From Escherichia coli (GTDB taxonomy: Bacteria; Pseudomonadota; Gammaproteobacteria; Enterobacterales; Enterobacteriaceae), in the NCBI RefSeq assembly GCF_003019035.1, contig NZ_CP027447.1: a stretch of DNA of 64,000 nucleotides; one strand, 5' to 3'. A program made the translations under genes and the position numbers. This document shows positions 5,893 to 64,000 of this stretch, in pieces. The notes under the pieces were generated by a model. It searched no databases. It saw nothing but the letters and a program-made list of their open reading frames with translations, and was not told the DNA's origin. How positions within the stretch are numbered: the stretch's first letter is position 1; each line of letters begins with the position of its first letter.

Positions 5893-5897
5893 GTGCT

Positions 5898-18331: not shown

Positions 18332-18335
18332 CCCG

Positions 18336-19109: not shown

Positions 19110-19113
19110 AAAT

Positions 19114-43841: not shown

Positions 43842-43844
43842 GTT

Positions 43845-45825: not shown

Positions 45826-46031
45826 AAATTACCGACGACCTCTGAAGTTATCCTGACGTTTTACAGGCTTTGTATTAAGAAACTATTAAGCCTGTGAGAT
45901 ATTATTTTTACCGGTGAGAGAGTCACGTCAGGGTAGAGAGATAATGAGAGCAGCTATATAAGAGATCAGCGCAATTACGATATCTTGATTACACTGACAG
46001 GATTTTACATATTTAACGGATTATCCTCAGG

Positions 46032-46054
46032 CAAAAGGGCTGGAATACCAGCCC
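46032..46054 (-). terminator. Rho-independent terminator after tdh
   Basis: GGGCTGG-aatacc-CCAGCCC hairpin 10 nt beyond the tdh stop, followed on the transcribed strand by UUUUG. Confidence 0.55.
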
Positions 46055-46063
46055 TTGTTCGTG

Positions 46064-47089
46064 TTAATCCCAGCTCAGAATAACTTTCCCGGACTGGCCC
46101 GAACGCATAGCGTCAAAGCCCTTCTGGAAATCATCGATAGAGAAACGATGGGTAATGATCGGCGAGAGATCGAGGCCAGACTGAATCAGCGCCGCCATCT
46201 TGTACCAGGTTTCAAACATCTCACGACCGTAAATACCTTTAATGAACAAGCCTTTAAAGATTACTTTGGTCCAGTCGATAGACATATCGGACGGTGGAAT
46301 ACCCAGCATCGCAATACGACCGCCGTGGTTCATGGTGTCGAGCATGGTACGAAACGCTGGCGGCGCACCGGACATTTCCAGACCGACATCAAAGCCTTCG
46401 GTCATGCCCAGTTCTGTCATCACATCATTAAGGTTTTCTTTCGCGACGTTAACCGCACGGGTGATACCCATTTTACGCGCCAGCTCAAGGCGGTATTCGT
46501 TAACATCAGTAATCACCACGTTACGTGCACCAACGTGTTTCGCCACCGCCGCCGCCATAATACCAATCGGGCCTGCACCAGAGACCAGCACATCCTCGCC
46601 CACCAGATCAAACGACAGCGCGGTATGCACGGCGTTACCGAAGGGATCAAAAATGGAAGCCAGATCATCGGAGATATTGTCGGGGATTTTGAAAGCGTTG
46701 AACGCCGGAATCACCAGATACTCGGCGAAGCAGCCCGGACGGTTAACGCCGACGCCGATCGTGTTGCGGCACAGATGGGTACGACCGCCACGACAATTGC
46801 GACAGTGACCGCAGGTGATATGGCCTTCGCCAGAAACGCGATCGCCAATCTTGAAGCCTTTCACTTCCTGACCAATACCTACCACTTCACCGACATATTC
46901 ATGGCCCACGACCATCGGCACCGGGATGGTTTTTTGCGACCACTCATCCCAGTTATAGATGTGAACGTCAGTCCCGCAGATGGCTGTTTTACGGATTTTA
47001 ATCAGCAGATCGTTATGCCCGAGTTCCGGTACAGGAACGTCGGTCATCCAGATGCCCTCTTCCGCTTTCAGTTTGGATAACGCTTTCAT
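46064..47089 (-). CDS. tdh: L-threonine 3-dehydrogenase
   Basis: 341-aa [48 protein letters not shown]...; Zn-ADH signatures. Confidence 0.95.
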
Positions 47090-47098
47090 CTCACATCC

Positions 47099-48295
47099 TC
47101 AGGCGATAACGCCCAGTTGTTTACCAATACGCGTGAATGCTTCTACTGCACGCGTAATTTGCTCAGGGGTATGCGCCGCAGACATCTGGGTACGAATACG
47201 CGCCTGACCTTTCGGAACGACCGGATAGAAGAAACCGGTGACGTAAATGCCCTCTTTTTGCAGCTCACGGGCAAATTTCTGCGCCACTACCGCATCGCCA
47301 AGCATGACCGGAATAATGGCGTGATCGGCTCCCGACAGGGTAAAGCCCGCCGCCGACATTTGCTCACGGAACTGACGCGCGTTCGCCCACAGACGGTCAC
47401 GCAGCTCGCTACCCGCTTCAACCATCTCCAGCACTTTGATGGAAGCGGCAACAATGGCCGGTGCCAGCGAGTTGGAGAACAGGTACGGACGAGAACGCTG
47501 GCGCAGCCACTCAACCACTTCTTTGCGCGCCGCGGTATAACCACCAGAAGCCCCGCCCAATGCTTTACCCAACGTACCGGTAATGATGTCTACACGCCCC
47601 ATCACATCGCAGTATTCATGGGAACCACGACCATTTTCACCGACAAAACCGACCGCGTGGGAGTCGTCTACCATCACCAGGGCATCGTATTTATCTGCCA
47701 GATCGCAAACGCCCTTCAGGTTGGCAATCACGCCGTCCATCGAGAACACACCATCGGTGGCAATCAGCACATGACGCGCACCGGCTTCACGCGCTTCTTT
47801 CAGACGTGCTTCCAGCTCCTGCATATCGTTGTTGGCATAGCGATAGCGTTTAGCTTTACACAGACGCACACCATCAATAATAGACGCGTGGTTCAGTGCG
47901 TCGGAGATAATGGCGTCTTCCGCGCCCAACAGCGTTTCAAACAGGCCACCGTTAGCATCAAAGCAGGAAGAGTAGAGAATCGCATCTTCCATCCCCAGGA
48001 ATGCCGCCAGTTTCTGTTCAAGCTCTTTATGGCTGTCCTGAGTGCCGCAAATAAAACGCACCGAAGCCATGCCGAAACCGTGAGAATCCATTCCCGCCTT
48101 TGCCGCCGCAATCAGATCCGGATGATTCGCCAGCCCGAGATAGTTGTTGGCACAAAAGTTAATGACGTGGCTTCCATCAGCCACAGTGATATCTGCTTGC
48201 TGCGCAGACGTAATAATGCGCTCTTCTTTAAACAACCCTTCCGCCCGTGCGGTTTCCAGATCGTTGGTTAACTGCTGATAAAATTCTCCACGCAT
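47099..48295 (-). CDS. kbl: 2-amino-3-ketobutyrate CoA ligase (glycine C-acetyltransferase)
   Basis: 398-aa [41 protein letters not shown]...; 9 nt upstream of tdh. Confidence 0.95.
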
Positions 48296-48508
48296 TGCGA
48301 TTCTCCAGACAGGGCAAATTCCAGCACATATTACCCAAACTTATAGGTCGCGACGAGATGACGCATTAACACTTCTGCAAAATTCAGGATAAATAACGTC
48401 CATCAATCTCACTTTTGGCGAATGGCTGAAGCCAACGCCGTGTAGTGATATGATAGAAGTATTCGTGTCTGAGATTGTCTCTGACTCCATAATTCGAAGG
48501 TTACAGTT

Positions 48509-49441
48509 ATGATCATCGTTACCGGCGGCGCGGGCTTTATCGGCAGCAACATCGTTAAGGCCCTGAATGATAAAGGCATCACCGATATTCTGGTGGTGGA
48601 CAACCTGAAAGACGGCACCAAGTTTGTGAACCTGGTGGATCTGGATATCGCGGACTATATGGATAAGGAAGACTTCCTGATCCAGATTATGGCTGGCGAA
48701 GAGTTCGGCGATGTCGAAGCGATTTTCCACGAAGGCGCGTGCTCTTCCACCACCGAGTGGGACGGCAAGTATATGATGGATAACAACTATCAATACTCCA
48801 AAGAGCTGCTGCACTACTGCCTGGAGCGCGAAATCCCGTTCCTGTACGCCTCTTCTGCAGCCACTTACGGCGGTCGCACCTCCGACTTTATTGAATCCCG
48901 CGAATATGAAAAACCGTTGAATGTCTACGGTTACTCAAAATTCCTGTTTGATGAATATGTTCGCCAAATCCTGCCGGAAGCCAACTCGCAGATTGTTGGC
49001 TTCCGCTATTTCAACGTTTATGGACCGCGTGAAGGCCATAAAGGCAGCATGGCGAGCGTCGCTTTCCATCTCAACACTCAGCTTAACAACGGTGAATCGC
49101 CGAAGCTGTTCGAAGGTAGCGAGAACTTCAAACGCGACTTCGTTTACGTAGGCGACGTGGCAGATGTAAACCTGTGGTTCCTGGAAAATGGCGTTTCCGG
49201 TATCTTCAACCTCGGTACTGGTCGTGCGGAATCCTTCCAGGCGGTAGCCGATGCAACGCTTGCTTATCACAAGAAAGGCCAGATCGAATACATTCCGTTC
49301 CCGGATAAACTGAAAGGCCGCTATCAGGCGTTCACTCAGGCAGATCTGACAAATCTGCGCGCGGCGGGTTACGACAAACCGTTCAAAACCGTTGCTGAAG
49401 GTGTAACGGAATACATGGCCTGGCTGAATCGCGACGCATAA
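48509..49441 (+). CDS. hldD: ADP-L-glycero-D-manno-heptose 6-epimerase
   Basis: 310-aa [36 protein letters not shown]...; Rossmann GxGxxG. Confidence 0.95.
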
Positions 49442-49450
49442 GAGCTCTGC

Positions 49451-50497
49451 ATGAAAATACTGGTGATCGGCCCGTCTTGGGTTGGCGACATGATGATGTC
49501 GCAAAGTCTCTATCGCACGCTCCAGGCGCGCTATCCCCAGGCGATAATCGACGTGATGGCACCGGCATGGTGCCGTCCATTATTATCGCGGATGCCGGAA
49601 GTTAACGAAGCGATCCCTATGCCTCTCGGTCACGGAGCGCTGGAAATCGGCGAACGCCGCAAACTGGGTCATAGTCTGCGTGAAAAGCGCTACGACCGCG
49701 CCTACGTCTTACCTAACTCCTTCAAATCCGCATTAGTGCCTTTCTTCGCAGGTATTCCTCATCGCACCGGCTGGCGCGGCGAGATGCGCTACGGTTTACT
49801 CAACGATGTACGCGTGCTCGATAAAGAAGCCTGGCCGCTAATGGTGGAACGCTATGTCGCGCTGGCCTATGACAAAGGCATTATGCGTACAGCACAAGAT
49901 CTGCCGCAGCCATTGTTATGGCCGCAGTTGCAGGTGAGCGAAGGTGAAAAATCATATACCTGTAATCAGTTTTCGCTCTCATCAGAACGTCCGATGATTG
50001 GCTTTTGCCCCGGAGCGGAGTTTGGTCCGGCAAAACGCTGGCCACACTACCACTATGCGGAGCTGGCAAAGCAGCTGATTGATGAAGGTTATCAGGTGGT
50101 TCTGTTTGGCTCGGCGAAAGATCATGAAGCGGGCAATGAGATTCTTGCCGCTTTGAATACCGAGCAGCAGGCATGGTGTCGGAATCTGGCGGGAGAAACA
50201 CAGCTCGATCAAGCGGTTATCCTGATTGCAGCCTGTAAGGCCATTGTCACTAACGATTCTGGTCTGATGCACGTTGCGGCGGCGCTCAATCGTCCGCTGG
50301 TTGCCTTGTATGGTCCGAGTAGCCCGGACTTCACACCGCCGCTATCCCATAAAGCACGCGTGATCCGCCTGATTACCGGCTATCACAAAGTGCGTAAAGG
50401 TGACGCAGCGGAGGGTTATCACCAGAGCTTAATCGACATTACTCCCCAGCGCGTACTGGAAGAACTCAACGCGCTATTGTTACAAGAGGAAGCCTGA
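49451..50497 (+). CDS. waaF: LPS heptosyltransferase II
   Basis: 348-aa ORF MKILVIGPSWVGDMMMSQSLYRTLQARYPQAIIDVMAP... Confidence 0.93.
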   Translation: MKILVIGPSWVGDMMMSQSLYRTLQARYPQAIIDVMAPAWCRPLLSRMPEVNEAIPMPLGHGALEIGERRKLGHSLREKRYDRAYVLPNSFKSALVPFFAGIPHRTGWRGEMRYGLLNDVRVLDKEAWPLMVERYVALAYDKGIMRTAQDLPQPLLWPQLQVSEGEKSYTCNQFSLSSERPMIGFCPGAEFGPAKRWPHYHYAELAKQLIDEGYQVVLFGSAKDHEAGNEILAALNTEQQAWCRNLAGETQLDQAVILIAACKAIVTNDSGLMHVAAALNRPLVALYGPSSPDFTPPLSHKARVIRLITGYHKVRKGDAAEGYHQSLIDITPQRVLEELNALLLQEEA

Positions 50498-50500
50498 CGG

Positions 50501-51460
50501 ATGCGGGTTCTGATCGTTAAAACATCGTCGATGGGCGATGTTCTCCACACGCTGCCCGCACTCACTGATGCCCAGCAGGCAATCCCAGGGATTAAGTTTG
50601 ACTGGGTGGTGGAAGAAGGGTTCGCACAGATTCCTTCCTGGCACGCCGCCGTTGAGCGAGTTATTCCTGTGGCAATACGTCGCTGGCGTAAAGCCTGGTT
50701 CTCGGCCCCCATAAAAGCTGAACGCAAAGCGTTTCGTGAAGCGCTACAAGTAGAGAACTATGACGCAGTTATCGATGCTCAGGGGCTGGTAAAAAGCGCG
50801 GCGCTGGTGACGCGTCTGGCGCATGGCGTAAAGCATGGAATGGACTGGCAAACCGCTCGCGAACCACTGGCAAGCTTGTTTTACAATCGTAAGCATCATA
50901 TTGCAAAACAGCAGCACGCCGTAGAACGCACCCGCGAACTGTTTGCCAAAAGTCTGGGCTATAGCAAACCACAAACCCAGGGCGATTATGCTATCGCACA
51001 GCATTTCCTGACGAACCTGCCTACAGATGCTGGCGAATATGCCGTATTTCTTCATGCAACAACCCGAGATGATAAACACTGGCCGGAAGAACACTGGCGA
51101 GAATTGATTGGTTTACTGGCTGATTCAGGAATACGGATTAAACTTCCGTGGGGCGCGCCGCATGAGGAAGAACGGGCGAAACGACTGGCGGAAGGATTTG
51201 CTTATGTTGAAGTATTGCCGAAGATGAGTCTGGAAGGCGTTGCCCGCGTACTGGCTGGGGCTAAATTTGTAGTGTCGGTGGATACGGGGTTAAGCCATTT
51301 AACGGCTGCACTGGATAGACCCAATATCACGGTTTATGGACCTACCGATCCGGGACTAATTGGTGGGTATGGGAAGAATCAGATGGTTTGTAGGGCTCCG
51401 GGGAAAAGTTTAAATAATCTCAACGGTCAAGCAGTTTTGGAAAAGTTATCATCATTATAA
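50501..51460 (+). CDS. waaC: LPS heptosyltransferase I
   Basis: 319-aa ORF MRVLIVKTSSMGDVLHTLPALTDAQQAIPGIKFDWVVEEGF... Confidence 0.93.
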   Translation: MRVLIVKTSSMGDVLHTLPALTDAQQAIPGIKFDWVVEEGFAQIPSWHAAVERVIPVAIRRWRKAWFSAPIKAERKAFREALQVENYDAVIDAQGLVKSAALVTRLAHGVKHGMDWQTAREPLASLFYNRKHHIAKQQHAVERTRELFAKSLGYSKPQTQGDYAIAQHFLTNLPTDAGEYAVFLHATTRDDKHWPEEHWRELIGLLADSGIRIKLPWGAPHEEERAKRLAEGFAYVEVLPKMSLEGVARVLAGAKFVVSVDTGLSHLTAALDRPNITVYGPTDPGLIGGYGKNQMVCRAPGKSLNNLNGQAVLEKLSSL

Positions 51461-51469
51461 AGGTAAAAC

Positions 51470-52735
51470 ATGCCAACCTTCATTAAACTTCATTCATGGA
51501 AACCTTACACTCTGAAATCATCTATGATTTTAGAGATAATAACTTATATATTATGTTTTTTTTCATTAATAATTGCATTCGTCGATAACACATTCAGCAT
51601 AAAGATGTATAACATCACTGCTATAACTTGCTTATTGGCGCTAATTTTACGTGGCAGACAAAAAAATTACAATATAAAAAATCTTATTCTGCCCCTTTCT
51701 ATAATTATTATAGGCTTGCTTGATTTAATTTGGTATTCTATATTTAAAGTAGATAACTCGCCATTTCGTGCTACTTACCATAGTTATTTAAATACTGCCA
51801 AAATATTTATATTTGGTTCTTTTATTGTTTTTTTAGCACTAACTAGTCAGCTAAAATATAAAAAAGAGAGTGTATTATACATTTTATATTCTCTGTCATT
51901 TATAATTGCTGGATATGCAATGTATATTAATAGCATTCATGAATATGACCGTATTTTTTTTGGTGTAGGAACGGCAACAGGAGCGGCATATTCAACAATG
52001 CTAATAGGGATAGTTAGTGGTGTTGCGATTCTTTATACTAAGAAAAACCATCCTTTTTTATTTTTATTAAATAGTTGCGCGGTACTTTATATTCTGGCGC
52101 TGACACAAACCAGAGCAACACTACTCCTGTTTCCTGTAATTTGTGCTGTTACATTAATAGCTTATTATAATAAATCACCTAAGAAATATACTTCCGCTAT
52201 TGTTCTTCTAATTGCTATATTGGCTAGTATTGTAATTATATTTAATAAACCAATACAGAATCGCTATAATGAAGCATTAAATGATTTAAACAGTTATACC
52301 AATGCTAATAGCGTGACTTCCTTAGGTGCAAGGCTGGCAATGTACGAAATTGGTTTGGATATATTCAAAAAGTCACCTTTTTCATTTAGATCTGCAGAGT
52401 CGCGCGCTGAAAGTATGAATTTGTTAGTTGCAGAACACAACAGGCTAAGAGGGGCATTGGAGTTTTCTAACGTACACCTACATAATGAGATAATTGAAGC
52501 AGCGTCACTAAAAGGTCTGATGGGGATTTTTTCCACCATTTTCCTCTATTTTTCACTATTTTATACAGCATATAAAAAACGCGCATTGGGTTTGTTGATA
52601 TTAACGCTTGGCATAGTGGGGATTGGACTCAGTGATGTAATCATATGGGCACGCAGCATTCCAATTATCGTTATATCCGCTATAGTCCTCTTGCTTGTTA
52701 TTAATAACCGCAACAATACTATTAATCAAGAATAG
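51470..52735 (+). CDS. waaL: O-antigen ligase
   Basis: 421-aa polytopic membrane protein, very AT-rich; position after waaC; sequence resembles the K-12-type WaaL as I recall it. Confidence 0.85.
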   Translation: MPTFIKLHSWKPYTLKSSMILEIITYILCFFSLIIAFVDNTFSIKMYNITAITCLLALILRGRQKNYNIKNLILPLSIIIIGLLDLIWYSIFKVDNSPFRATYHSYLNTAKIFIFGSFIVFLALTSQLKYKKESVLYILYSLSFIIAGYAMYINSIHEYDRIFFGVGTATGAAYSTMLIGIVSGVAILYTKKNHPFLFLLNSCAVLYILALTQTRATLLLFPVICAVTLIAYYNKSPKKYTSAIVLLIAILASIVIIFNKPIQNRYNEALNDLNSYTNANSVTSLGARLAMYEIGLDIFKKSPFSFRSAESRAESMNLLVAEHNRLRGALEFSNVHLHNEIIEAASLKGLMGIFSTIFLYFSLFYTAYKKRALGLLILTLGIVGIGLSDVIIWARSIPIIVISAIVLLLVINNRNNTINQE

Positions 52736-52760
52736 ACAAGTTTAAGAAGTGAGTTTTAAC

Positions 52761-53834
52761 TCACTTCTTATCTATACAAATTAATCTCTTTACTGAATCA
52801 GTTAAAATTTCAGTATCGATATCTTTTATCGTAAATGTTGGAGATACTATTTGTATAGATTGATGATTATTCGGGGCCCAAATTAAATGTGAGGGATATT
52901 CTGGTGTACGTGAATTAGGATAAAATGCAAGAGTTGGTTTATGATAAGCAGTAGCGATATGAACAAGAGCAGTATCAACAGAAATGACAAAATCACTATA
53001 CTTAGTCAACGCAACAGTATAAATAAACTCGTCAAATGGTAGTGTTTCAATTTCAGGTATTGGTATTGTCAATAAATCTTGCGGTAACCCAGTAAATATC
53101 ACTCGATAATTCTCAAACTGGACTTTCACTTCTTGATATATAACTTTTATTTGCTCAAACGTAAGTCGGCATATTTTTTTTGCACCTAATGGATTAATGA
53201 TGACTATCCTTGTATTTCCAATAAAATCTATTATTTTATTTTCAACATCTACAGGCAAATGCAAGTCGTAGTCGGTGGAAAATTCACCCTCACCATAAAT
53301 ATGCTTCAGTATTTCTATTGCTCGTGTACTCATATGTTCTTTTAAACATTCATCATGGGGATGGTAAAATGAATAGTAACGCTTATACCATTGATCAAAA
53401 CCCAGAATGTAAGAATATTTTAAACTTGATAATATTAAACTATGCTTAAATGAGGGCATAGTTTCAAAGGGGTCTAATACAATATCGAACTGTAAATCCC
53501 GCAGATGCTTACATAGAGTAAGCATTTTAAGGGAACCTGTTGATTCTTTAATACAGAATCCAAATATATTTTTATTGTTAGAGAGAAACTCCCCACCCTT
53601 TCTATTTGTGAGAATAGTTATTTTAACTCCTTTACTGTAAAGCTCACGATAAATCGAACTTAATACAATTAAATCACCGAGTTTATTATTATCATGAATG
53701 ATAAGGCATGATTTAACTTGTGCGAGATCTGTAACTTGGTTATTGATTTTTTTACGAAATAAAAAAGAAAGAAAATTAATCTTGATTTTGTTTATATAAA
53801 ATCTTTTCTTTTTGTGAAAAGTTCCTAAACGCAT
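52761..53834 (-). CDS. waaU: LPS core heptosyltransferase IV (GT9 family)
   Basis: 357-aa ORF with heptosyltransferase-like C-terminal region (…ISVDTALVHIATA…); last gene of the waaQ operon in the K-12-type arrangement. Confidence 0.75.
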   Translation of the reverse strand: MRLGTFHKKKRFYINKIKINFLSFLFRKKINNQVTDLAQVKSCLIIHDNNKLGDLIVLSSIYRELYSKGVKITILTNRKGGEFLSNNKNIFGFCIKESTGSLKMLTLCKHLRDLQFDIVLDPFETMPSFKHSLILSSLKYSYILGFDQWYKRYYSFYHPHDECLKEHMSTRAIEILKHIYGEGEFSTDYDLHLPVDVENKIIDFIGNTRIVIINPLGAKKICRLTFEQIKVIYQEVKVQFENYRVIFTGLPQDLLTIPIPEIETLPFDEFIYTVALTKYSDFVISVDTALVHIATAYHKPTLAFYPNSRTPEYPSHLIWAPNNHQSIQIVSPTFTIKDIDTEILTDSVKRLICIDKK

Positions 53835-53866
53835 TTTTATACCATAATATTTTAGTTACAGGATGA

Positions 53867-54724
53867 TTAATTAGCATAAGAATCAGTTGAAGCTTTATAT
53901 TCCATTTTTTTCCTTATCTTATCCTGTGACTTTGACTCTTCTGAACTGATATCGAGAGGCTTAATAAATGGAATTACATCGTAAGAAATAGCCGTATCAT
54001 CTGACAAATTATAAATATTAATATCTTCTACATTATCACGCATAAAACGGAAAAATGGTAAGATTTTAAACAAATCCCTACTCAATTCCGAGGGCATAGG
54101 ATTGTTACTTTCGTCATAGAAACGAGTACAACTACCAGTTAAATCAAGACCAGAACAAATAATCCGCGCATACTTCAGCGAATAGGCTATTTGGATTGCA
54201 GCAAAGGCAACGGTATGGCATGAACAATAACCGAGATTAATATCCTTGCAAAAGCCAACCAGACGACCTTTTTTAGAAAAAGGTACAGAAATCAGGAGCT
54301 CTTTATGAATTCGGCTCAAAATATTAAACTTAATCTTCTTAATCAATCCACCTTTTTCTCTGCGGTAAAATGAACGTAGTACCAGGCAGTTTTGAAGGAT
54401 GTACCGTTTATCTTCTTCAGAAGCATGTTCATAAACATCAACATTTACGATGGTATAACGACTTCTCTGGCTAAATTTATAAAAATCATCACGTCGTTGA
54501 TGTAAAAAGCGAACATCAGTAAGTACATAAATATACGGAATAATATTATGACTTAATAGATATTGCGCAGAACCATTGACAGCAATAACATCCCTTGTCT
54601 GCAGCACTGACAATGGTGTTTTTTGCGATGTGGGGCCGGAAAGAAAAATAATAACATCATCAGACGTTTTACTTTCTATCAGGTTCTCAACATCTTTTTT
54701 GCCAATGTATCTAATATTCTTCAT
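53867..54724 (-). CDS. waaZ: LPS core biosynthesis protein WaaZ
   Basis: 285-aa ORF MKNIRYIGKKDVENLIESKTSDDVIIFLSG...; position between waaY and waaU. Confidence 0.8.
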   Translation of the reverse strand: MKNIRYIGKKDVENLIESKTSDDVIIFLSGPTSQKTPLSVLQTRDVIAVNGSAQYLLSHNIIPYIYVLTDVRFLHQRRDDFYKFSQRSRYTIVNVDVYEHASEEDKRYILQNCLVLRSFYRREKGGLIKKIKFNILSRIHKELLISVPFSKKGRLVGFCKDINLGYCSCHTVAFAAIQIAYSLKYARIICSGLDLTGSCTRFYDESNNPMPSELSRDLFKILPFFRFMRDNVEDINIYNLSDDTAISYDVIPFIKPLDISSEESKSQDKIRKKMEYKASTDSYAN

Positions 54725-54795
54725 GATAAACCTGTGAAATAAGAACTCCGCATAGAAATGTCCTGATGAAGACGTTTAAACGTAAGACGTTTACA

Positions 54796-55494
54796 TTATC
54801 GTGCTGGCTTCCCTTTCAAACGCCGCATAAGATTACGTATTTTTTTACGATAAACTAAAATATAATAACCGAGATCTTTAATCTCATTCTTAATACCATA
54901 ATGTCGCTCTAAATCAATACGATCTTTCGCTTTACGTTGTGCAGATGCCCGTTTTCCTGAAAGATCAATAATACGTACTTCACCATTTTCAATAATAAAA
55001 TTACCGCGGTGAGGATCACCAGATACCATACCATGTTTGTGCAATGAACGGATTGATTGTTGAATTTTATTTTTTAACGTTTCATCAATGTCGGGGATAT
55101 CACACAACTCTACGCCATCGATATATTCGATAAGCATGATATAAGTATGGACAAAACGTAATGTTTTCCGTTCTGCCAATAAATAAAAATCATTGAGTGT
55201 ATTTAACCCTTCATTTCTTACTTTTTGGGTTTGCTCAAAAAGGCGTTCGTAATAATCACCTTTTAACAGAGACTTAAAGAAACGTTCGTTACGCTTAACT
55301 TTCGGAGAAAAAACCTTAAGAATCAATTTGCCGTAATCGGTATCAATAAGCATAACTTTTGTATCATCAATAGAACGAAAAACCTTGATGATATTTATAT
55401 TATAAGACAAGAAGTCATTTAATACATTGAGATACTTTGAATTGTTTTCATCGGTAAAAACAACCAAGTCTTTGATCTTGCTCTTCTGAATCAT
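54796..55494 (-). CDS. waaY: LPS core heptose(II) kinase
   Basis: 232-aa ORF with kinase-like motifs (HGMVSGDPHRGNFI). Confidence 0.85.
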   Translation of the reverse strand: MIQKSKIKDLVVFTDENNSKYLNVLNDFLSYNINIIKVFRSIDDTKVMLIDTDYGKLILKVFSPKVKRNERFFKSLLKGDYYERLFEQTQKVRNEGLNTLNDFYLLAERKTLRFVHTYIMLIEYIDGVELCDIPDIDETLKNKIQQSIRSLHKHGMVSGDPHRGNFIIENGEVRIIDLSGKRASAQRKAKDRIDLERHYGIKNEIKDLGYYILVYRKKIRNLMRRLKGKPAR

Positions 55495-55511
55495 AATAAA
55501 CCAGTTAAGTG

Positions 55512-56528
55512 TTATTTACGGTAATACTTTCGGCAAAGATAACAGACTCCTGCTATAATTCCTGAGATATAGTTATGCTGCACTAAAAGGTGTTTATATC
55601 TTTTTTTAAATTCAATAATTGATTTTGCATCTCGTGGAGAGTCATCTTTCCATGGTGAATTTTCTAAAGCTATTTTATAGTATTTTACCGATGGATAAAT
55701 TGCCCATTTGTGCCACGGTTTAGTTGCACCTGTATAATGAATAAGCAGAGTACTTTCTGTAATCAGTTTTTTATAGTTTTGATGTGTTTTGTCTTTTAAT
55801 TCACTTTTAATTGTATAAATTGTATTGTACTCACGAGGCAAAAATATTGTCATCCCTTTCAGTAAGACATTCATAACATCCTGATCAGGGTATTTATAAA
55901 CATTATCTTTACTCATAAGAATAGACAACGCTTTTTCGGTTAGTTTTGCGTTAGCCCATTTTTTTAAATCTAAATAAACGACACCGGAATTAAAGTACTG
56001 CCCAAGTAATTCAGGATCAGACAACCTGGATGCCGCCTTTTCCTGCATTGGGTCAACATCTTTAACAACAGCAGCAACCGCTCCGTTTAAATCCAGATAC
56101 AATAGTTGGCTAATATCGCCTTTACAAACAACATCTGCATCAAGATAAAGCAAACGATCAAGCGTTAAACCCAATAATTGAAATGCAAATAAACGGAAGT
56201 ACATTGCTCTTGACCAGACTTGTGTACAAGGCAAGCACTGAAGATTATCAGTATTTATTCTATAAAGTGTGATTCTTAATTGGTATTGCTCAGCAAGTTT
56301 TGCGACTTTTTGAAAGAAATCGTCGCTATAAACATCAGCAATAATATAAAAATCAAGATTAACATGTCGATTATTGATGACAATTGAAGTAATGGATACA
56401 CCTACAGCATCAAGATAATTTGCATCGACACCATAGGCAACATTTAAACTTTCAGCAGTATTTTCATCAATAAGCCTAAAATCCCAAGCTTTAACTTTAT
56501 CTATCTCTATGGCAGGAAATGAGTCCAC
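55512..56528 (-). CDS. waaJ: LPS outer-core alpha-1,2-glucosyltransferase (GT8)
   Basis: 338-aa ORF with GT8 features (DADVV DxD-type motif, YFNSGV); paralogous to the adjacent waaO; also called waaR in K-12-type clusters. Confidence 0.8.
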   Translation of the reverse strand: MDSFPAIEIDKVKAWDFRLIDENTAESLNVAYGVDANYLDAVGVSITSIVINNRHVNLDFYIIADVYSDDFFQKVAKLAEQYQLRITLYRINTDNLQCLPCTQVWSRAMYFRLFAFQLLGLTLDRLLYLDADVVCKGDISQLLYLDLNGAVAAVVKDVDPMQEKAASRLSDPELLGQYFNSGVVYLDLKKWANAKLTEKALSILMSKDNVYKYPDQDVMNVLLKGMTIFLPREYNTIYTIKSELKDKTHQNYKKLITESTLLIHYTGATKPWHKWAIYPSVKYYKIALENSPWKDDSPRDAKSIIEFKKRYKHLLVQHNYISGIIAGVCYLCRKYYRK

Positions 56529-56567
56529 AAGGCTACCCTTATATCATTACTTTATAGTTTCCCAGTT

Positions 56568-57587
56568 TTAATTCTTTATCTTTTCAATAAAATAAAAAAG
56601 ATAGTTGCTAAATCCTTTTAGATATCTATGCTTTTTAAGCATATGTTTTGCGCTATATCTTAATTGATTGCTATTATTCGGTTTCAGCAACGCCGTACTC
56701 TTCCATGGCGAAGCATTTTTTGCCTCCACAAAGGCTTGTGATACAGGATAATCCCAAGCCCAATCATGCCAGGGCTTGGTTGGACCGATATAGTGGATAA
56801 AAATAGTATCGTTGGTTACTGGGTTTGTAAAACTTTCTTTGAGTTGATAGTTTAAGCTAAACTGGGTGTTATATTTAATATCAGCAAAAATAAGTCTGTC
56901 TGCCAGCAACATATTTAATACATCCTGATCAGGATGTGTTATTTTTTTGACTATTTCCGGATCATTTAGCATTGCAATGGCTCGTGCAGAAACCTGCTGA
57001 GCCGCCCATTGGTCAGTATTAATCAATAAAAAACCGGAGTTAAAGTAACCTTTAGCAATTCCCGCAACACCTAACGAATGTGCGCGTTTTTCCCACCAGT
57101 CAGCTTGCCCTTCTGTAACAACCATTGCGACTTTATCGTCAGGAAATGAGAATTTAATTAGGGGCTCAATAGTCCCCTGACAAATGATATCTGCATCCAG
57201 ATAAAGGACTTTAGCCGCCTTATTAATAAAGTAATCTGCAATAACAAAACGAAAATATATTGCATGAGTCCAGTTCTTTGTGCTAGGCAATGAGCGCAGT
57301 CGATCACCATTAATCAGATATATTTTAATTCTGGTTTTATACTGCAACGCCAGTGCATCAAAATATTTACGATCATCATCACCAAAATAATCAGTAAAAA
57401 TATGGAAACACAATCGACTTCCTTCATTATACTTTAATATTGAAGCAATCGAAATTCCGCAACCAAATAGAAAATTTTTGTCAGTTCCATAAGCGATGTC
57501 CAGACAAAGATTTTCTGTTTCTACTTTATGATTATAATCAATAACTGAATTAAGAAACTCAGTCTCCTGGAAAAACACCTGCTGCAT
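56568..57587 (-). CDS. waaO: LPS outer-core alpha-1,3-glucosyltransferase (GT8)
   Basis: 339-aa ORF with GT8 motifs (LDADIICQG, YFNSGFLLIN); formerly rfaI. Confidence 0.85.
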   Translation of the reverse strand: MQQVFFQETEFLNSVIDYNHKVETENLCLDIAYGTDKNFLFGCGISIASILKYNEGSRLCFHIFTDYFGDDDRKYFDALALQYKTRIKIYLINGDRLRSLPSTKNWTHAIYFRFVIADYFINKAAKVLYLDADIICQGTIEPLIKFSFPDDKVAMVVTEGQADWWEKRAHSLGVAGIAKGYFNSGFLLINTDQWAAQQVSARAIAMLNDPEIVKKITHPDQDVLNMLLADRLIFADIKYNTQFSLNYQLKESFTNPVTNDTIFIHYIGPTKPWHDWAWDYPVSQAFVEAKNASPWKSTALLKPNNSNQLRYSAKHMLKKHRYLKGFSNYLFYFIEKIKN

Positions 57588-58666
57588 TATTTCCTCCGGG
57601 AAATAGCAGAAATAATTATCTTATGTAATCTATCGTAATACTTCGATTTATAAAACTTATCGATCGACTCAGGAATTTTTTCATGTTCGATATGAATTTC
57701 ACCTGCTATATATTTATTGAGAAGAGTTACAAAACCAGCAATATCTCCCGGTTGATACAGATGACCATTAACATCAGGTTGAATAATGTCAGCAGGCCCG
57801 GAGACACAATCGGCGCTGATGCAAGGAATTCCCCATGACAAGGCTTCAAGTAGGGTCATTGGGAAACCTTCAAAAGATGACGTGAGCAATAACGCACTCA
57901 CTTTTTTAATATCTTGCTGGACCAATTCCCAGGGATGTTGTTGCCAACCATACCAGACAACTCGATCATCAATATTTAATTCTCTACCATAAGCCTGGCA
58001 TTTTTCGAAATCGGAGCCATCTCCCAATACATGAAGTTTCCAGTCACCTTGCACTTGTGATAAGCCATCAAGGAGGTCTTTAACCCGCTTCTGGCCCTCG
58101 AATTTCATACGCCCAACATAAATGAACGTTGCCGTTTCGCCTTCCTCAGGCCCAGGAATAACTGTGTCTTTAGCTTCGACTGGATTAAAAATAACATTTA
58201 TCGTCGATTCTGGTACACCCCGATTAATCATTTGCTGTTTAATGCCAGAGCTGATGGCTAAATGATAATCGGCACAGGTGATATATTCATCATGTTTTTT
58301 GTGATCTAAAGAAAAATGCGGCCATGAAAATACAGGTACATCAATTCCCGATTTTTTACGAGCTTTGGCCGCATACAAACACGAGATCACGTCAATACAA
58401 ATAACAACATCTGGCTGATAATCCTGAAGCCATTTGCTTAAAGCATGAATATGTTTCGCCCGACGCAAACAACCTAAGCGAATATTGGAAAATGAACACG
58501 AGTACTTAATACCGTCCAGCCATCCCTTATCCATTTTGTCATTACGACAAAAGAAAAACATTTCACTATGGATATGTTGTTGCCTGAAGGTAGTAATAAC
58601 ATCACGAATGACTGTTTCCATGCCGCCAAATCCAGAAACAGCTTCGCCGATAAATGCTATTTTCAT
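57587..58666 (-). CDS. waaB: LPS core alpha-1,6-galactosyltransferase (GT4)
   Basis: 359-aa product from ATG 58666 (MKIAFIGEAVSGFGGMETVIRDVITTFRQ...); ORF-track start 58696 adds 10 codons. Confidence 0.88.
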   Translation of the reverse strand: MKIAFIGEAVSGFGGMETVIRDVITTFRQQHIHSEMFFFCRNDKMDKGWLDGIKYSCSFSNIRLGCLRRAKHIHALSKWLQDYQPDVVICIDVISCLYAAKARKKSGIDVPVFSWPHFSLDHKKHDEYITCADYHLAISSGIKQQMINRGVPESTINVIFNPVEAKDTVIPGPEEGETATFIYVGRMKFEGQKRVKDLLDGLSQVQGDWKLHVLGDGSDFEKCQAYGRELNIDDRVVWYGWQQHPWELVQQDIKKVSALLLTSSFEGFPMTLLEALSWGIPCISADCVSGPADIIQPDVNGHLYQPGDIAGFVTLLNKYIAGEIHIEHEKIPESIDKFYKSKYYDRLHKIIISAISRRK

Positions 58667-58709
58667 TGAAACTCTCATTAATTGAGTAAAACTCACTGTT
58701 TTAATGGTT

Positions 58710-59645
58710 TTATTTTTCTATAAAATCAGAAACAATTGTTGACATCATTTTATCAGGGCTGAATTTATATAAACTATCATAATCCATTGGTTTAACAGAT
58801 GAATTAATAAAATACTCTAACTTATCCCAATCATCATGCCCCATTATAAAAAAGCGAGATTCACTATAGATTTCTGAACCAAGGATATTTATATTATTAG
58901 TAATTAATTTTTTATTGAAAAATAGTGCCTCAAGTATACGAAGAGTCCAGCCAGATTGGTTTTCTTTAGTTATATCAATAATTATATTAGCATTTAATGT
59001 TCTGTTAATATTCTCTTCATAAGGTAATTGCTTTTCAATCAAATACTTTGAAGTCGGAGATGATGTCTTATCTTTGACAACATTAAAATCTAGCTTACAT
59101 CCTAGTGCTGTTAATCTATCGGCTAATTCATTAATTATTTGAAGACGTCCTTTATCACGACCAAGAAAAAAACATATTGGCTGACTGTTATTTTTGTCAG
59201 ATAAACTATAATTTATAACTTCATCCATTCCTATAGGAAAAAATTGTTTTATTGCCTTGGTCTTTTCATTCCCTATAAATCTATGCTCAAAATCATAGAT
59301 AATATCAAAATAATTAGAGTTATCAAAAATAAAATCTTCGCTGACAGTATTCCTTAGAAGTAATACTTTACGACAATTAATATTTCTTAATATTTGCTTG
59401 TTAATACCTTTATTAATGACACTGTCATTAAAGATAATTATATCATCCTTTTTTACAGCATTTAGGTGATGTTTGATAAATAATCGCCCCAACCATGCAT
59501 TATCCATCCCTAATTTCGAAATTTTCTTATTAACCCAGTTGTATTTGTTTGGTGTTGTTATATTTTTTATCTTGTACTTTTTTTTCAGGTACTGGATCAT
59601 CTTTAATTCATAATCTGCAACCCAGTTTATAAAATAAATAGTCAT
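58710..59645 (-). CDS. waaS: LPS core biosynthesis protein WaaS
   Basis: 311-aa [35 protein letters not shown]...; very AT-rich. Confidence 0.8.
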
Positions 59646-59681
59646 AATGAAGTTAATTCCAGTACATACTGATAAATATTT

Positions 59682-60479
59682 TTATAATCCTTTGCGTTGT
59701 GTTCGCTCTTTAATATGCTCGGCCTTAACACTTGCCATGTTCAATAAATTCCGTTCAAGAGATAATATCTTACGTAAAGGTATCCCAAAATAAACCTTCA
59801 TAAATCGCCAGATATCTCTCTGTGTTAGACCAATATTCATTGATGAGAAATATAAACCAATCAAATCTTTATCCCGCCAACGACGTGGTACTTTTGCCCG
59901 TATCTGCGCGCGATGCAGGTCTATTACCGAAATTTTTAACCCATCTTCCCGGCCAGTAAATGGCAAATGGAGCAAAAAGTGGCAAATATAACAGTCGCGG
60001 TGATTTATCCCTGCGGCGTGCATTTTGTGCACCATGGTTGCCACACGCGCGATCAGCATACGCTTAATATGTACATCAGGCGGGTTGACCGCCCAATCTG
60101 CACAATAATCTTCAAGGCTAATCGTGGGAGTGAGATCTTCGGTAATAATAAATGATGTGCGAGTTAATGGATTTAACCCTTTTTCACCAAACCCTATTCC
60201 GTGCATCGTATCAACACCGACATCATGCAGTCGATGAATAGCGTGCCACTCTCTGTCTGCGCCTAAAACGGGCATCCGCAATGAGAGCAGGTTTTTTATA
60301 ATTTCTTTTAAAGTCGTCCCTTTGTGCCACTTGAGGAAATAGCTTTTCCCGGCCAGTTCAAAGCGTAATGTGCGACGCGTCTCGAGTTCACGAAAGACCT
60401 CGCCATTCAGTTTTTTAACTTCTGCAAAGGCATCTTTACCACGCCAGAGTGTGGCAAGTGGCTCTTTTAATTCAACCAT
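59682..60479 (-). CDS. waaP: LPS core heptose(I) kinase
   Basis: 265-aa [40 protein letters not shown]...; kinase catalytic region [11 protein letters not shown]. Confidence 0.93.
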
Positions 60480-61596
60480 CTAAACCACCTGTAATGATAT
60501 CTGCCGCTTTCTCCGGCAAGCTATACAAATCCTGAGTATCGGCGTAATACCGAGCATTCTCCGCCCAAGCCATGCGCAATGGAGATTGAGTTAACGCTTT
60601 ACGTAAAACGTCATTTAATTGTTCCTGGGAGAAAGGTTCAGCGATGACCGTTCCACAATTAGCATCCGCAATATAATGCGCGTACCCACATACCGCTGTT
60701 GTTAAAACAGGTAATCCAGCAGTGATCGCTTCAAGAAGAACGATACCCGCGGCTTCCTGATAAGCGGGATGCAGTAATAAATCAGCGGCTGCCATTAATT
60801 CTGACACATCATTGCGACCGGAGAAGAAATGCACATTGCTCCGCACGCCGAGTTTTTCTGCCAGCGCTTCAAACTTTCGCGGTTTATCCTGCCCAACAAC
60901 AAATAACAGCGTATTGTGACGTAATGATTCCGGTAACGATGCCAAAGCTTCAATTGAGCGATCCACACCCTTACGGCCAAAATCTGATCCAACCTGCAGT
61001 AATAAGTTTTGTTGTTCAGTGATGCCATTTTTCTGGCGATAAATTTCACGACTGTTTGGGATTTGCGCGCTGTATTTTCTGTCCGGGTAGATACCAGGAG
61101 GAAGAATTTGAAAACGTTCTGGTTCAGTTTGGTAATGCTTCTGGAAATCGGCGATTTGCTTATCCGTCAGCATCATGAGTTTCGTCGGTTTACCATGCTC
61201 GAAAGTCGCTCGCTCAAATGCAGCATAATGGCGATAGCGTGATGTTAAACGATAGAACAAGCCCTTTTCTTGCGCCACTTTCTCGGCATAACAGACATCA
61301 GCGGCAAAATAAACATCCAGCCCTGGCATCTTATTAAAGCCAACAACCCGATCAGCGGGATGTGCCTTCAGATGGTTTTGAACCCAGGCATAATATTCTG
61401 CATTACGTCCATGGTTAGTATGGGATTTAACCGGTACGCGAATAAGCTCAAATGCATCCGGGCAATCGCCTTCCCACGACTGTGTATATACCCGAACATG
61501 GTGGCCCCGTGTGGCAACTGTTGAGGCTATACGCATAAAGTCACGCTGTAGCCCACCAAATGGAAAATATTTATATAAGCAAAACGCCACGATCAT
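60472..61596 (-). CDS. waaG: LPS core alpha-1,3-glucosyltransferase I (GT4)
   Basis: 374-aa [44 protein letters not shown]...; overlaps waaP by 8 nt. Confidence 0.95.
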
Positions 61597-62627
61597 AATT
61601 GTGCATTCCTGTCAGCTGAAGGGGCATCTTCTGGCAACAGCTTTTCCGTAGCGGCAATGACATCTTCCGCTGGAATAACAGAAAGATATTTTTTGTTGCG
61701 GTCAAGTTCGTGCCGGGTAGGCATTTTTTGATAATTCCCCGCCCAGAACTGAATAATATTCTCGGTCCATGGACGCCAGAATACATGATCAGTAGCCCCA
61801 AACAGGCTAATAACTGGCGTCTTCACCGCCGCCGCAATATGCCCCGGCGCAGAATCCACACCAATAAAGAGCACGGCATGATCAATTAATGCGCCCAGTT
61901 CAGGAAAACGTGTTTTACCGGCAAGGCCGGTAATAGGTTTTATTTGGCAGCCTCGTGCAATTTCATCTACGCAAGCGAGATCATCTGCCGAAGGGCCACA
62001 AGTCAGCACAACCTGATAACCACGATGTTGCAACGCATCGATAACCATAGAAAATTTATCGTTGTCCCAGCACTTAAATAGCTGTCGGGCTGTCGGCTGG
62101 ATAACGACATAATGATCTTTCACGCCCAGTGCATCTAATTCCTGGCGCATTTTCTTCCAGCAATCATCAGCATAACTCATTGTTGTTTCAGTATAAAAAT
62201 CGGTAATACCTAATGGCTCAAGGACCGACAAATTACGCTCAACAATATGTGTACCGTGTATAGGCGCTAAGTGTGTAAAGCTTTTTTTCCAAATGCCATG
62301 CTGCCGATGACCATAAAGCTGCGATATTTTCATCCGTGCAGGTAAACAACGTACCAGCAGGGCCACCATCCACTGATCCGTAAGATTAATGACTAGGTCG
62401 TAATCATTCGCACGCAGAGTTTTTATCAGTGAAAGTGCATTTTTAATTTTATCGAATGTTCCCGCACCTTTATTGCTTATACCATAGAGTGCATTAATTT
62501 CTGGGTTTTCAGATAAAATCGGAATTGTATCCTGGTAAAGCAGCATATCGATTTTAGCGTCGGGATAATTCTGCTTGAGTGTACTGATTACAGGAGTAGT
62601 TAATAACATATCTCCGTGATATCGCAT
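61593..62627 (-). CDS. waaQ: LPS heptosyltransferase III
   Basis: 344-aa product from ATG 62627 (MRYHGDMLLTTPVISTLKQNYPDAKIDMLLYQD...); ORF-track start 62663 is a GTG 12 codons upstream; true start not resolved. Confidence 0.88.
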   Translation of the reverse strand: MRYHGDMLLTTPVISTLKQNYPDAKIDMLLYQDTIPILSENPEINALYGISNKGAGTFDKIKNALSLIKTLRANDYDLVINLTDQWMVALLVRCLPARMKISQLYGHRQHGIWKKSFTHLAPIHGTHIVERNLSVLEPLGITDFYTETTMSYADDCWKKMRQELDALGVKDHYVVIQPTARQLFKCWDNDKFSMVIDALQHRGYQVVLTCGPSADDLACVDEIARGCQIKPITGLAGKTRFPELGALIDHAVLFIGVDSAPGHIAAAVKTPVISLFGATDHVFWRPWTENIIQFWAGNYQKMPTRHELDRNKKYLSVIPAEDVIAATEKLLPEDAPSADRNAQL

Positions 62628-62710
62628 CTTTATGACCAGGATTTTTCGAAATGGCTTTTCCACTAGCGACTCTTTTGTGTGATTGTCTGGTTAAGTTAAG
62701 CAGAAAAAAG

Positions 62711-62722
62711 CACGCTACCGCC
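62711..62722 (-). promoter_or_regulatory. ops element (RfaH recruitment site) within the JUMPStart sequence in the waaQ 5' leader
   Basis: Plus strand reads CACGCTACCGCC, i.e. GGCGGTAGCGTG on the transcribed (minus) strand; lies 85-95 nt upstream of the waaQ start. Confidence 0.85.
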
Positions 62723-63067
62723 CCAGGCTCAACAGCTACCCGAATACTGATAACGCACTTACTTTGACGCGCTAGTGTATCATTTCTTTCGCAGCAATCC
62801 GACCCGAATGATTTTTATACACAAAATATGATTTAATTATAAAAATCATATAGATAAAATTTTGTATACAGAGAATCCAGATATTGTCTATGTAAAGTTG
62901 CAATCCTGGCTGAAATTCAATGAATCGCATAAAAATACAAAAAAATGAAGATCTAGCAGCAGATCAGCTCAAACAGAGACTATTTAAGTCAAAAACGGGA
63001 AAAGTAATGGTAAAGCCACAGCTAAATACATAGAATCCCCAGCACATCCATAAGTCAGCTATTTACT

Positions 63068-64000
63068 ATGCTCGAATTGCTTTACACCGCCCTTCTCTAC
63101 CTTATTCAGCCGCTGATCTGGATACGGCTCTGGGTGCGCGGACGTAAGGCTCCGGCCTATCGAAAACGCTGGGGTGAACGTTACGGTTTTTACCGCCATC
63201 CGCTAAAACCAGGCGGCATTATGCTGCACTCCGTCTCCGTCGGTGAAACTCTGGCGGCGATCCCGTTGGTGCGCGCGCTGCGTCATCGTTATCCTGATTT
63301 ACCGATTACCGTTACAACCATGACGCCAACCGGTTCGGAGCGCGTACAATCGGCTTTCGGGAAGGATGTTCAGCACGTTTATCTGCCGTATGACCTGCCC
63401 GATGCACTTAATCGTTTCCTGAATAAAGTCGACCCTAAACTGGTGTTGATTATGGAAACCGAACTATGGCCTAACCTGATTGCGGCGCTACATAAACGTA
63501 AAATTCCGCTGGTGATCGCTAACGCGCGACTCTCTGCCCGCTCGGCCGCAGGTTATGCCAAACTGGGTAAATTCGTCCGTCGCTTGCTGCGTCGTATTAC
63601 GCTGATTGCTGCGCAAAATGAAGAAGATGGTGCACGTTTTGTATCACTGGGCGCAAAAAATAATCAGGTGACCGTTACCGGTAGCCTGAAATTCGATATT
63701 TCTGTAACGCCGCAACTGGCTGCTAAAGCAGTGACGCTGCGCCGCCAGTGGGCACCACACCGCCCGGTATGGATTGCCACCAGCACTCACGAAGGCGAAG
63801 AGAGTGTGGTGATCGCCGCACATCAGGCATTGTTACAGCAATTCCCGAATTTATTGCTCATCCTGGTACCCCGTCATCCGGAACGCTTCCCGGATGCGAT
63901 TAACCTTGTCCGCCAGGCTGGACTAAGCTATATCACACGCTCTTCAGGGGAAGTCCCCTCCACCAGCACGCAGGTTGTGGTTGGCGATACGATGGGCGAG
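63068..64000 (+). CDS. waaA: Kdo transferase (3-deoxy-D-manno-octulosonic acid transferase), 3'-truncated by the window edge
   Basis: Open frame from ATG 63068 to the window end; translation MLELLYTALLYLIQPLIWIRLWVRGRKAPAYRKRWGERYGF...; absent from the ORF track because no stop is in the window. Confidence 0.9.
   Translation, partial: MLELLYTALLYLIQPLIWIRLWVRGRKAPAYRKRWGERYGFYRHPLKPGGIMLHSVSVGETLAAIPLVRALRHRYPDLPITVTTMTPTGSERVQSAFGKDVQHVYLPYDLPDALNRFLNKVDPKLVLIMETELWPNLIAALHKRKIPLVIANARLSARSAAGYAKLGKFVRRLLRRITLIAAQNEEDGARFVSLGAKNNQVTVTGSLKFDISVTPQLAAKAVTLRRQWAPHRPVWIATSTHEGEESVVIAAHQALLQQFPNLLLILVPRHPERFPDAINLVRQAGLSYITRSSGEVPSTSTQVVVGDTMGE

Follow-up and report, generated by a model that had tools for sequence, protein, structure and literature searches.

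The AT-rich centre of an Escherichia coli waa locus: a rare, intact sub-allele of the exchanged K-12-type outer-core cassette

In Escherichia coli, the waa (rfa) locus has the G+C content of the core genome at waaDFC and waaA, a slightly lower one at waaQGP and a markedly lower one in the central variable genes; the loci carry no remnants of phages, insertion sequences (IS) or transposons (Tn) and are transferred by homologous recombination (Leclercq et al., 2021; PMC8715443). Hybrids between the K-12 and R2 core types and loci with K-12 gene order in E. marmotae have also been described, together with an O158:H23 strain whose K-12-like locus was left untyped (Trofimova et al., 2025; PMC13293308). 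Here we analyze an AT-rich block of the waa locus, waaL through waaS, at positions 51470-59645 of a 64,000-nucleotide stretch of E. coli DNA (hereafter the window; RefSeq assembly GCF_003019035.1, contig NZ_CP027447.1). The block is very probably the variable centre of the locus with a K-12-type outer core, an old AT-rich acquisition that has since been exchanged, present here as a rare intact sub-allele. Both the composition pattern and its interpretation by exchange are already published, and the block represents known biology in already annotated sequence.

The locus most resembles that of K-12 (MG1655). From hldD to waaA, gene content, order and orientation are identical, the eight outer-core proteins are orthologous with 88.8-96.8% amino acid identity, the G+C content of the K-12 block is 0.333 compared to 0.335 in the window, and the hairpin sequence between waaL and waaU is the same. 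The window also has a JUMPstart element with an ops site upstream of waaQ, as is known of the K-12 waaQ leader. The two loci differ in that nucleotide divergence amounts to about 7% over waaL-waaQ and to about 3% in the flanks, that WaaL has 421 instead of 419 and WaaZ 285 instead of 283 amino acids, and that the synonymous divergence (dS) of waaZ/waaY and waaPGQ is 2-4 times that of the flanks. In addition, yibB (htrL), which lies upstream of hldD in K-12, is absent from the window. In K-12 and O157:H7, this gene has kbl and hldD as its neighbours; it is missing at 48296-48508 as well as in most other loci that we fetched.

The R2 locus (strain LR-03) has waaZ, waaY, waaJ, waaO, waaB and waaPGQ in common with the window at 87-98% nucleotide identity, and the window waaQ (98.1%), WaaZ and WaaY are nearer to R2 than to K-12. 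However, at the positions of waaU, waaS and the K-12-type waaL of the window, the R2 locus has waaK, wabA and a waaL that is unrelated. The R1, R3 and R4 loci occupy the same site between conserved flanks and have a G+C content of 0.33-0.35, paralogues of glycosyltransferase family 8 (GT8) and a WaaY kinase with 53-59% amino acid identity. R1 and R4 differ by carrying waaT/W plus V (R1) or waaX (R4) and by an inverted waaL on the operon strand, whereas R3 has a waaK-like GlcNAc transferase gene (waaD in PMC13293308) and its own waaJ, but no waaB, waaZ or waaS. In all three types, waaQGP is only 70-81% identical to the window in nucleotide sequence. The RfaH-dependent O-antigen rfb and group 2 capsule kps clusters are likewise AT-rich, have a JUMPstart/ops leader and are cassettes swapped via conserved flanks. 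The window locus resembles them in its AT-richness, its JUMPstart/ops leader and the swapping of alternative cassettes. The core locus differs from them in having five main alleles instead of over 180, and in including waaP and waaG, which are needed for outer-membrane stability.

To assign the core type, we compared the window proteins by BLASTP with all proteins of the variable blocks of the five core types, using as reference loci K-12 MG1655, R2 LR-03 (waaK, wabA), R3 O157:H7, R1 KO11FL (E. coli W) and N44 (GT2 WaaV-like gene), and R4 strain 201609 (GT25 WaaX-like gene). WaaL was 92.6% identical to its K-12 counterpart over 419 residues, followed by R4 (32%) and R1 (30%), and had no match in the R2 or R3 blocks. 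For WaaU (92.2%) and WaaS (91.0%), K-12 gave the sole match among the five blocks, and no homologue was found in the variable blocks of R1-R4. The products of waaZ, waaY, waaJ, waaO and waaB, the genes common with R2, matched both K-12 and R2 at 88-97%. In global alignments, R2 waaK, wabA and waaL reached 16%, 19% and 21% amino acid identity, respectively, to the window genes at those positions; between waaB and waaP, the window has waaS where R2 has wabA. Because the R2 genes at the waaL, waaU and waaS positions are unrelated to those of the window, the R2 type, which a reading of the DNA made from sequence alone (hereafter the sequence-only reading) had left as a possibility, is excluded. 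As to the other types, the window shows only paralogue-level GT8 similarity to R1 and R4 (39-44% amino acid identity), has no GT2 or GT25 gene and carries waaL on the opposite strand; it has no match to R3 WaaL and possesses waaB, waaZ and waaS.

The published typing oligos agree with this assignment. K12-F matches exactly at 53488-53508 (plus strand, in waaU) and K12-R at 54914-54936 (minus strand, in waaY), in the correct arrangement and with an in-silico amplicon of 1449 bp compared to the published 1442 bp (PMC13293308, Table 2). The R2-F oligo, which targets waaK, did not match anywhere in the window at up to 3 mismatches. By gene content, the cassette is thus of the K-12 core type, as the sequence-only reading had proposed; the BLASTP comparison of WaaL and WaaU that it suggested gave K-12 as best match for both. 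We suspected that the allele might escape in-silico typing, since the untyped O158:H23 strain (GCA_018986795.1) carries it, but rejected this idea for the window, which both K-12 oligos match exactly. In the supplement of PMC13293308, where we looked for the typing of SCU-301 and three other carriers, the O158:H23 entry was the only one found.

We compared the window with five other carriers of the haplotype: 19KM1831, DETEC-S792, MEW, 06-00048 and the O158:H23 strain of PMC13293308. Over waaL through waaQ, all five match the window at 99-99.9% identity, but envC-waaC reaches only 96-98%. They differ from it by 2.55-2.82% over 42700-51356 and, 4- to 7-fold less, by 0.42-0.61% over 51357-62700 (Fisher p 1e-30 to 1e-46). 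All five share the left breakpoint: dense single-nucleotide polymorphisms (SNPs) end at 51356, within waaC and about 100 bp from its end, and are followed by 0-5 differences per 500 bp. The right breakpoint varies: one carrier has it at 62741, two have it at about 63220-63400, and in the remaining two it falls beyond the window. Since dense SNPs end at 51356 and resume no earlier than 62741, about 11.4 kb comprising waaL-waaQ have been co-inherited. The travelling unit is therefore waaL through waaQ (about 51357 to at least 62740) and not just the AT-rich waaL-waaS.

Across core types, non-homologous gene sets fill the same site between conserved flanks. Strain AVS0754 (NZ_CP124320.1) has a K-12 outer core joined at waaS/waaP to a waaQGP of the R1/R3 class (waaQ 69% identical to the window in nucleotides). 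Several hundred K-12-type genomes seem to share this arrangement, a count obtained by subtraction. We also scanned species-representative genomes with WaaU as query, which returned two loci. One, in Escherichia sp. E1V33 (NZ_RHJI01000002.1, 4197-9968), is 99.6-100% identical to MG1655 over waaZ-waaS, whereas in hldD-waaC and waaA its identity to the window is 90-92%; its waaL represents a third allele with 91% identity to K-12 and 93% to the window. The near identity of waaZ-waaS despite flanks at 90-92% is direct evidence of a recent transfer of the mainstream K-12 cassette from one species to another. The other locus, on a 4.8-kb contig (CALVRS010000082.1) of an "uncultured Bacilli" metagenome-assembled genome, is 99.9-100% identical to K-12 over waaL-waaJ and was dismissed as almost certain E. 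coli contamination. The horizontal exchange that the sequence-only reading had deduced from composition is therefore supported beyond composition, by one haplotype between unlike flanks in five genomes and by the K-12 cassette in another Escherichia species.

The gene map combines the open reading frame (ORF) list, NCBIfam profiles, the Prokaryotic Genome Annotation Pipeline (PGAP) annotation of the SCU-301 record and the annotation of MG1655. The window is nearly identical to this E. coli SCU-301 RefSeq record (NZ_CP051751.1), in which PGAP gives the same gene names. The order is that of MG1655, with waaL on the plus strand followed by the minus-strand genes waaU, waaZ, waaY, waaJ (waaR), waaO, waaB, waaS, waaP, waaG and waaQ. 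ORFs, NCBIfam and annotation agree with the genes that the sequence-only reading had listed (waaU, waaZ, waaY, two GT8 paralogues, waaB and waaS).

48509-49441, plus strand: hldD, conserved inner-core gene of the left flank.
49451-50497, plus strand: waaF, conserved inner-core gene of the left flank.
50501-51460, plus strand: waaC, conserved inner-core gene of the left flank, from which the operon runs on into waaL.
51357-51470: left boundary of the shared haplotype and G+C drop, from the 3' end of waaC to the start of waaL.
51470-52735, plus strand: waaL, predicted K-12-type O-antigen ligase of 421 amino acids (92.6% to K-12 WaaL; PGAP annotation; no NCBIfam model match).
52743-52770: perfect 13-bp inverted repeat where the genes waaL and waaU converge; it overlaps the stop codon of waaU.
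52761-53834, minus strand: waaU (rfaK of K-12), predicted GT9 heptosyltransferase IV and K-12-specific marker (92.2% amino acid identity to K-12; weak GT9 match).
53867-54724, minus strand: waaZ, predicted transferase of a third Kdo residue (KdoIII), 285 amino acids (NF007333, 539 bits, cut-off 473).
54796-55494, minus strand: waaY, predicted core heptose(II) kinase (NF007684, 397 bits, cut-off 248).
55512-56528, minus strand: waaJ (waaR in K-12 naming), predicted GT8 alpha-1,2-glucosyltransferase (94.1% amino acid identity to K-12).
56568-57587, minus strand: waaO (waaI), predicted GT8 alpha-1,3-glycosyltransferase (NF011718, 579 bits, cut-off 461; 96.8% amino acid identity to K-12).
57587-58666, minus strand: waaB, predicted GT4 alpha-1,6-galactosyltransferase (NF007396, 603 bits, cut-off 385; 93.9% amino acid identity to K-12).
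58710-59645, minus strand: waaS, predicted WaaS/CpsH-family glycosyltransferase (NF053598, 179 bits, cut-off 60; 91.0% amino acid identity to K-12).
59682-60479, minus strand: waaP, promoter-proximal gene of the long operon.
60472-61596, minus strand: waaG, promoter-proximal gene of the long operon.
61593-62663, minus strand: waaQ, promoter-proximal gene of the long operon.
62711-62749, minus strand: JUMPstart element, 48 nucleotides upstream of the waaQ start, with the ops site GGCGGTAGCGTG at 62711-62722.

The GT8 paralogues waaJ and waaO are about 34-36% identical at the amino acid level. WaaB has 359 amino acids when read from the ATG at 58666; the frame is open up to a GTG at 58696, and the NF007396 match begins at residue 10 of this longer ORF.

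The block stands out by its base composition. Its G+C content is 0.335 compared to 0.510 in the remaining 55.8 kb, and 51470-59645 is the lowest-G+C 8.2-kb stretch of the whole window; the two coordinates correspond exactly to the starts of waaL and waaS (minus strand). In 500-bp windows, G+C was 0.52-0.55 at 49000-51250 (hldD-waaF-waaC), fell to 0.35 and then to 0.28 within 51250-52000, i.e., sharply at the waaC/waaL junction, stayed at 0.28-0.44 up to about 59750 and reached at most 0.44-0.49 beyond. The values of the individual genes are 0.32 for waaL, 0.31 for waaU, 0.35 for waaZ, 0.33 for waaY, 0.34 for waaJ, 0.36 for waaO, 0.40 for waaB and 0.27 for waaS, the lowest of the block. At third codon positions (GC3), G+C is 0.23-0.34 in the eight block genes compared to 0.47-0.63 in hldD/waaF/waaC. 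The AT-rich block with AT-biased codons that the sequence-only reading had described was thus found on computation, and the sliding-window plot was clearly non-uniform. Its view that both flanks are close to genome-typical applies to hldD/waaF/waaC (0.51-0.54) but not to waaP, waaG and waaQ, which are intermediate with a G+C content of 0.436, 0.461 and 0.439, respectively, and a GC3 of 0.39-0.41. With one locus set per type, G+C of the variable block is 0.333 in K-12, 0.355 in R2, 0.332 in R3, 0.352 in R1 and 0.347 in R4. As all five blocks fall at 0.33-0.36, low G+C characterizes the locus and not the K-12 type.

A full K-12-type block is present in 1,031 of 5,426 complete E. coli genomes, but the allele of the window is rare, being found at 99% identity or more in just nine of the 5,426. 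Two other K-12-type genomes match it at 94.8%, and the rest among the matches listed at about 93%; some 500 further genomes, which are R2-like, match the waaZ-waaB part only. Over the flanks (tdh to waaC), essentially all genomes reach 95-99% identity. For waaQ-G-P, nucleotide identity is about 76% in 4,468 of 5,422 genomes (the R1, R3 and R4 classes), 92.4% in K-12 and 95.8% in R2-like genomes; per gene, waaP, waaG and waaQ are 99-99.7% identical to the five carriers, 91-93% to K-12 and 70-81% to R1/R3-class alleles. These values place waaPGQ in the polymorphic block and link it to the core type. Along the locus, nucleotide identity between the window and MG1655 follows a mosaic profile.

hldD-waaC: about 97%.
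waaL-waaU: 91-95%.
waaZ-waaY: 84-90%.
waaJ and waaO (two islands): about 97%.
waaS through waaQ: 90-96%.
waaA (from about 63150): 98%.

Over the hldD-waaF-waaC segment, identity to K-12 is 97.0% (96.6-97.5% per gene), with a ratio of nonsynonymous to synonymous divergence (dN/dS) of 0.01-0.06. We conclude that the window carries a rare, intact K-12 sub-allele that is mosaic relative to the mainstream K-12 and R2 alleles, and that current typing lumps this rare, deeply diverged sub-allele with K-12. No source of the sub-allele was found in the WaaU scan of species-representative genomes, as neither of the two loci returned has this allele.

All eight block ORFs have full length relative to K-12. 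By the Nei-Gojobori method against MG1655, dN/dS is 0.06-0.18 in the block compared to 0.01-0.06 in the flanks, which indicates purifying selection with weaker constraint on the block than on the flanks. The most diverged block gene is waaZ (88.8% amino acid identity to K-12 and 92.2% to R2; dS 0.59, dN/dS 0.08). Clearly elevated dS values, which are rough given the skewed base composition, were obtained only for waaZ, waaY, waaP, waaG and waaQ (0.28-0.59; waaP/G/Q 0.28-0.43), and only these five genes look truly older or foreign. The notion of a uniformly "ancient" haplotype was tempered, with dS above flank level only in waaZ, waaY and waaPGQ.

The JUMPstart element in the waaQ leader (Rfam RF01707, 53.1 bits, gathering score 35, E = 8e-10) with the ops sequence GGCGGTAGnnTG is a hallmark of RfaH-type operons. 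The ops match at 62711-62722 is the sole one in the window, and the Rfam scan of 44000-64000 returned nothing besides JUMPstart. The ops element is the loading site of the antiterminator RfaH, which suppresses premature termination in long polysaccharide operons, and its position upstream of waaQ fits RfaH-dependent expression. The repeat at 52743-52770 folds as RNA with -16.6 kcal/mol (z = -4.9), and its sequence is the same, without any change, in each of the nine K-12-type E. coli loci that we fetched and in CALVRS010000082.1. It is probably a 3'-end hairpin shared by the waaL and waaU units, though its role as terminator is only inferred because no T-run follows it on either strand.

These data fit a model in which two convergent units, hldD-waaF-waaC-waaL on the plus strand and the ten-gene waaQ-G-P-S-B-O-J-Y-Z-U on the minus strand, would meet at the 52743-52770 hairpin, as the gene arrangement suggests, and in which RfaH at ops would let RNA polymerase read through the long AT-rich waaQ operon. 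In the K-12 pathway, WaaG, WaaO and WaaJ (WaaR) build the Glc-Glc-Glc backbone, WaaB adds a Gal branch, WaaU adds the fourth heptose (HepIV on GlcIII) and WaaL is the O-antigen ligase; WaaP and WaaY are the kinases of heptoses I and II, WaaQ transfers HepIII, and WaaZ and WaaS make non-stoichiometric KdoIII and rhamnose glycoforms. The low G+C content would mark an old acquisition from an AT-rich source. Later, alternative cassettes were exchanged among strains, and even among species of Escherichia, through homologous recombination within the conserved flanks, i.e., the 3' end of waaC on the left and the waaQ-waaA spacer or waaA on the right, without mobile-element genes.

No observation speaks against the type assignment; several points weigh against other parts of this model. 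Composition alone can neither date nor source the acquisition, and no homologue or donor has been found outside Escherichia and Shigella (PMC8715443). Our scan of species-representative genomes did not reveal a donor either. The dS values of waaL, waaU, waaJ, waaO, waaB and waaS (0.11-0.26) overlap those of the flanks (0.10-0.22), so that the contrast between 93% and 97% identity partly reflects more amino acid change under weaker protein constraint and not age. Scans of 48200-63300 for promoters and terminators gave no excess over shuffled sequences (49 compared to 46.9 and 12 compared to 13.2, respectively); the operon structure thus rests on gene arrangement and prior knowledge. For an allele that is about 7% diverged, the enzyme roles and the K-12 core structure are predictions.

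An R2 cassette or a K-12/R2 hybrid would account for waaQ (98.1% nucleotide identity to R2, 91.7% to K-12), WaaZ (92.2% of amino acids compared to 88.8%) and WaaY (96.6% compared to 94.4%), and such hybrids exist (PMC13293308). All three type-distinguishing positions, waaL, waaU and waaS, are nevertheless K-12, the R2 genes waaL, waaK and wabA are unrelated (16-21% amino acid identity; no BLASTP match) and the R2-F oligo is absent, which refutes the R2 or hybrid assignment for gene content and leaves it a practically negligible probability. Vertical inheritance with fast, relaxed or diversifying local evolution, without exchange between lineages, agrees with the higher dN/dS of the block and with a dS no higher than that of the flanks in six of the eight genes. 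Still, point mutation cannot yield non-homologous gene sets at one site, and vertical descent is hard to reconcile with hybrid junctions at waaS/waaP, with a haplotype that is near-identical in genomes whose flanks are 4- to 7-fold more different, or with a K-12 cassette at 99.6-100% identity in another species, which in its flanks differs from the window by about 8-10%; we therefore consider it very improbable.

The abrupt G+C boundary at 51250-51500 would also be expected of a recent, strain-specific genomic island brought in by a mobile element. However, the gene maps show neither an integrase or transposase nor a tRNA or direct-repeat boundary within or beside the block, a low-G+C cassette occupies this site in every E. 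coli genome, and remnants of phages, IS or Tn were likewise not found by Leclercq et al. (PMC8715443), making a recent island extremely improbable. It is improbable, too, that the rare sub-allele, although its gene content is that of K-12, specifies a core of different chemistry, which would be a sixth type or a sub-type. WaaL, WaaU, WaaS and WaaZ are 8-11% diverged in amino acids, the allele occurs in only nine of 5,426 genomes, and PGAP names this WaaL just "O-antigen ligase family protein"; on the other hand, all eight genes have one-to-one orthologues with no gain or loss and are under purifying selection. Glycosyltransferase orthologues diverged to this extent usually keep their specificity. 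On balance, an exchanged K-12-type cassette in the form of a rare sub-allele remains the preferred explanation. Within it, there is a small chance that the waaL-waaQ haplotype represents an old, separately maintained K-12 sub-lineage with a subtly different core, and that the most diverged parts of the haplotype, waaZ-waaY and waaPGQ (dS 0.3-0.6), came from an unsampled Escherichia lineage. If so, the diverged WaaL, WaaU, WaaS and WaaZ could confer another ligation acceptor preference or other KdoIII/Rha glycoforms, and the altered core could shift recognition by phages, colicins or DC-SIGN.

Which O-antigens can be ligated depends on the outer core, and many phages and some colicins use it as their receptor, so that the core type of a strain is useful for phage-therapy matching and typing. 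While the locus only confirms textbook knowledge, the analysis modestly adds the waaL-waaQ unit, the cross-species K-12 cassettes and the rare sub-allele.

Two carriers of the haplotype have broken core genes. The O158:H23 strain has frameshifts in waaL and waaS, its waaL stopping at codon 37 and its waaS at codon 66, and 06-00048 has a waaZ truncated at 271 and a waaS truncated at 133. Either these are genuine variants with a rough or altered core, or they may be errors of sequencing. In DETEC-S792 and 06-00048, the waaL frame is intact (421 codons), yet the records lack a waaL annotation. Between 42600 and 64000, the SCU-301 record differs from the window at 15 sites, all inside 53905-55767 (1.9 kb). 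Twelve of them are deletions of one base from the record, most of which fall in A/T homopolymers, and these cause PGAP to call its waaZ, rfaY and rfaJ frameshifted; because the ORFs of the window are intact, the deletions are probably assembly errors. Upstream of 42600, the window and the record differ by about 0.4%.

Elsewhere in the window, a second low-G+C patch at 11531-19635 corresponds to the distal end of an Rhs element, with G+C down to 0.29 at 19251-19750, and comprises the following features.

11531-15571: Rhs core ORF of 1346 amino acids, intact in the window and called frameshifted in the SCU-301 record.
15543-15926: yhhH-like ORF.
16016-16873: yibA.
17185-18321: ISAs1-family transposase.
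18336-19109: orphan RHS C-terminal fragment.
19114-19635: Imm57 immunity gene.

Near the start of the window, at about 2314-2926 and 4848-6143, lie a HicA/HicB toxin-antitoxin pair and a Fic-family gene, whose positions were mapped from SCU-301 with an offset uncertainty of 251 bp. The ORF at 28024-32970 encodes a YadA-like trimeric autotransporter adhesin of 1648 amino acids, compared to a 4713-bp gene in SCU-301; the 251-bp length difference falls within the internal repeats.

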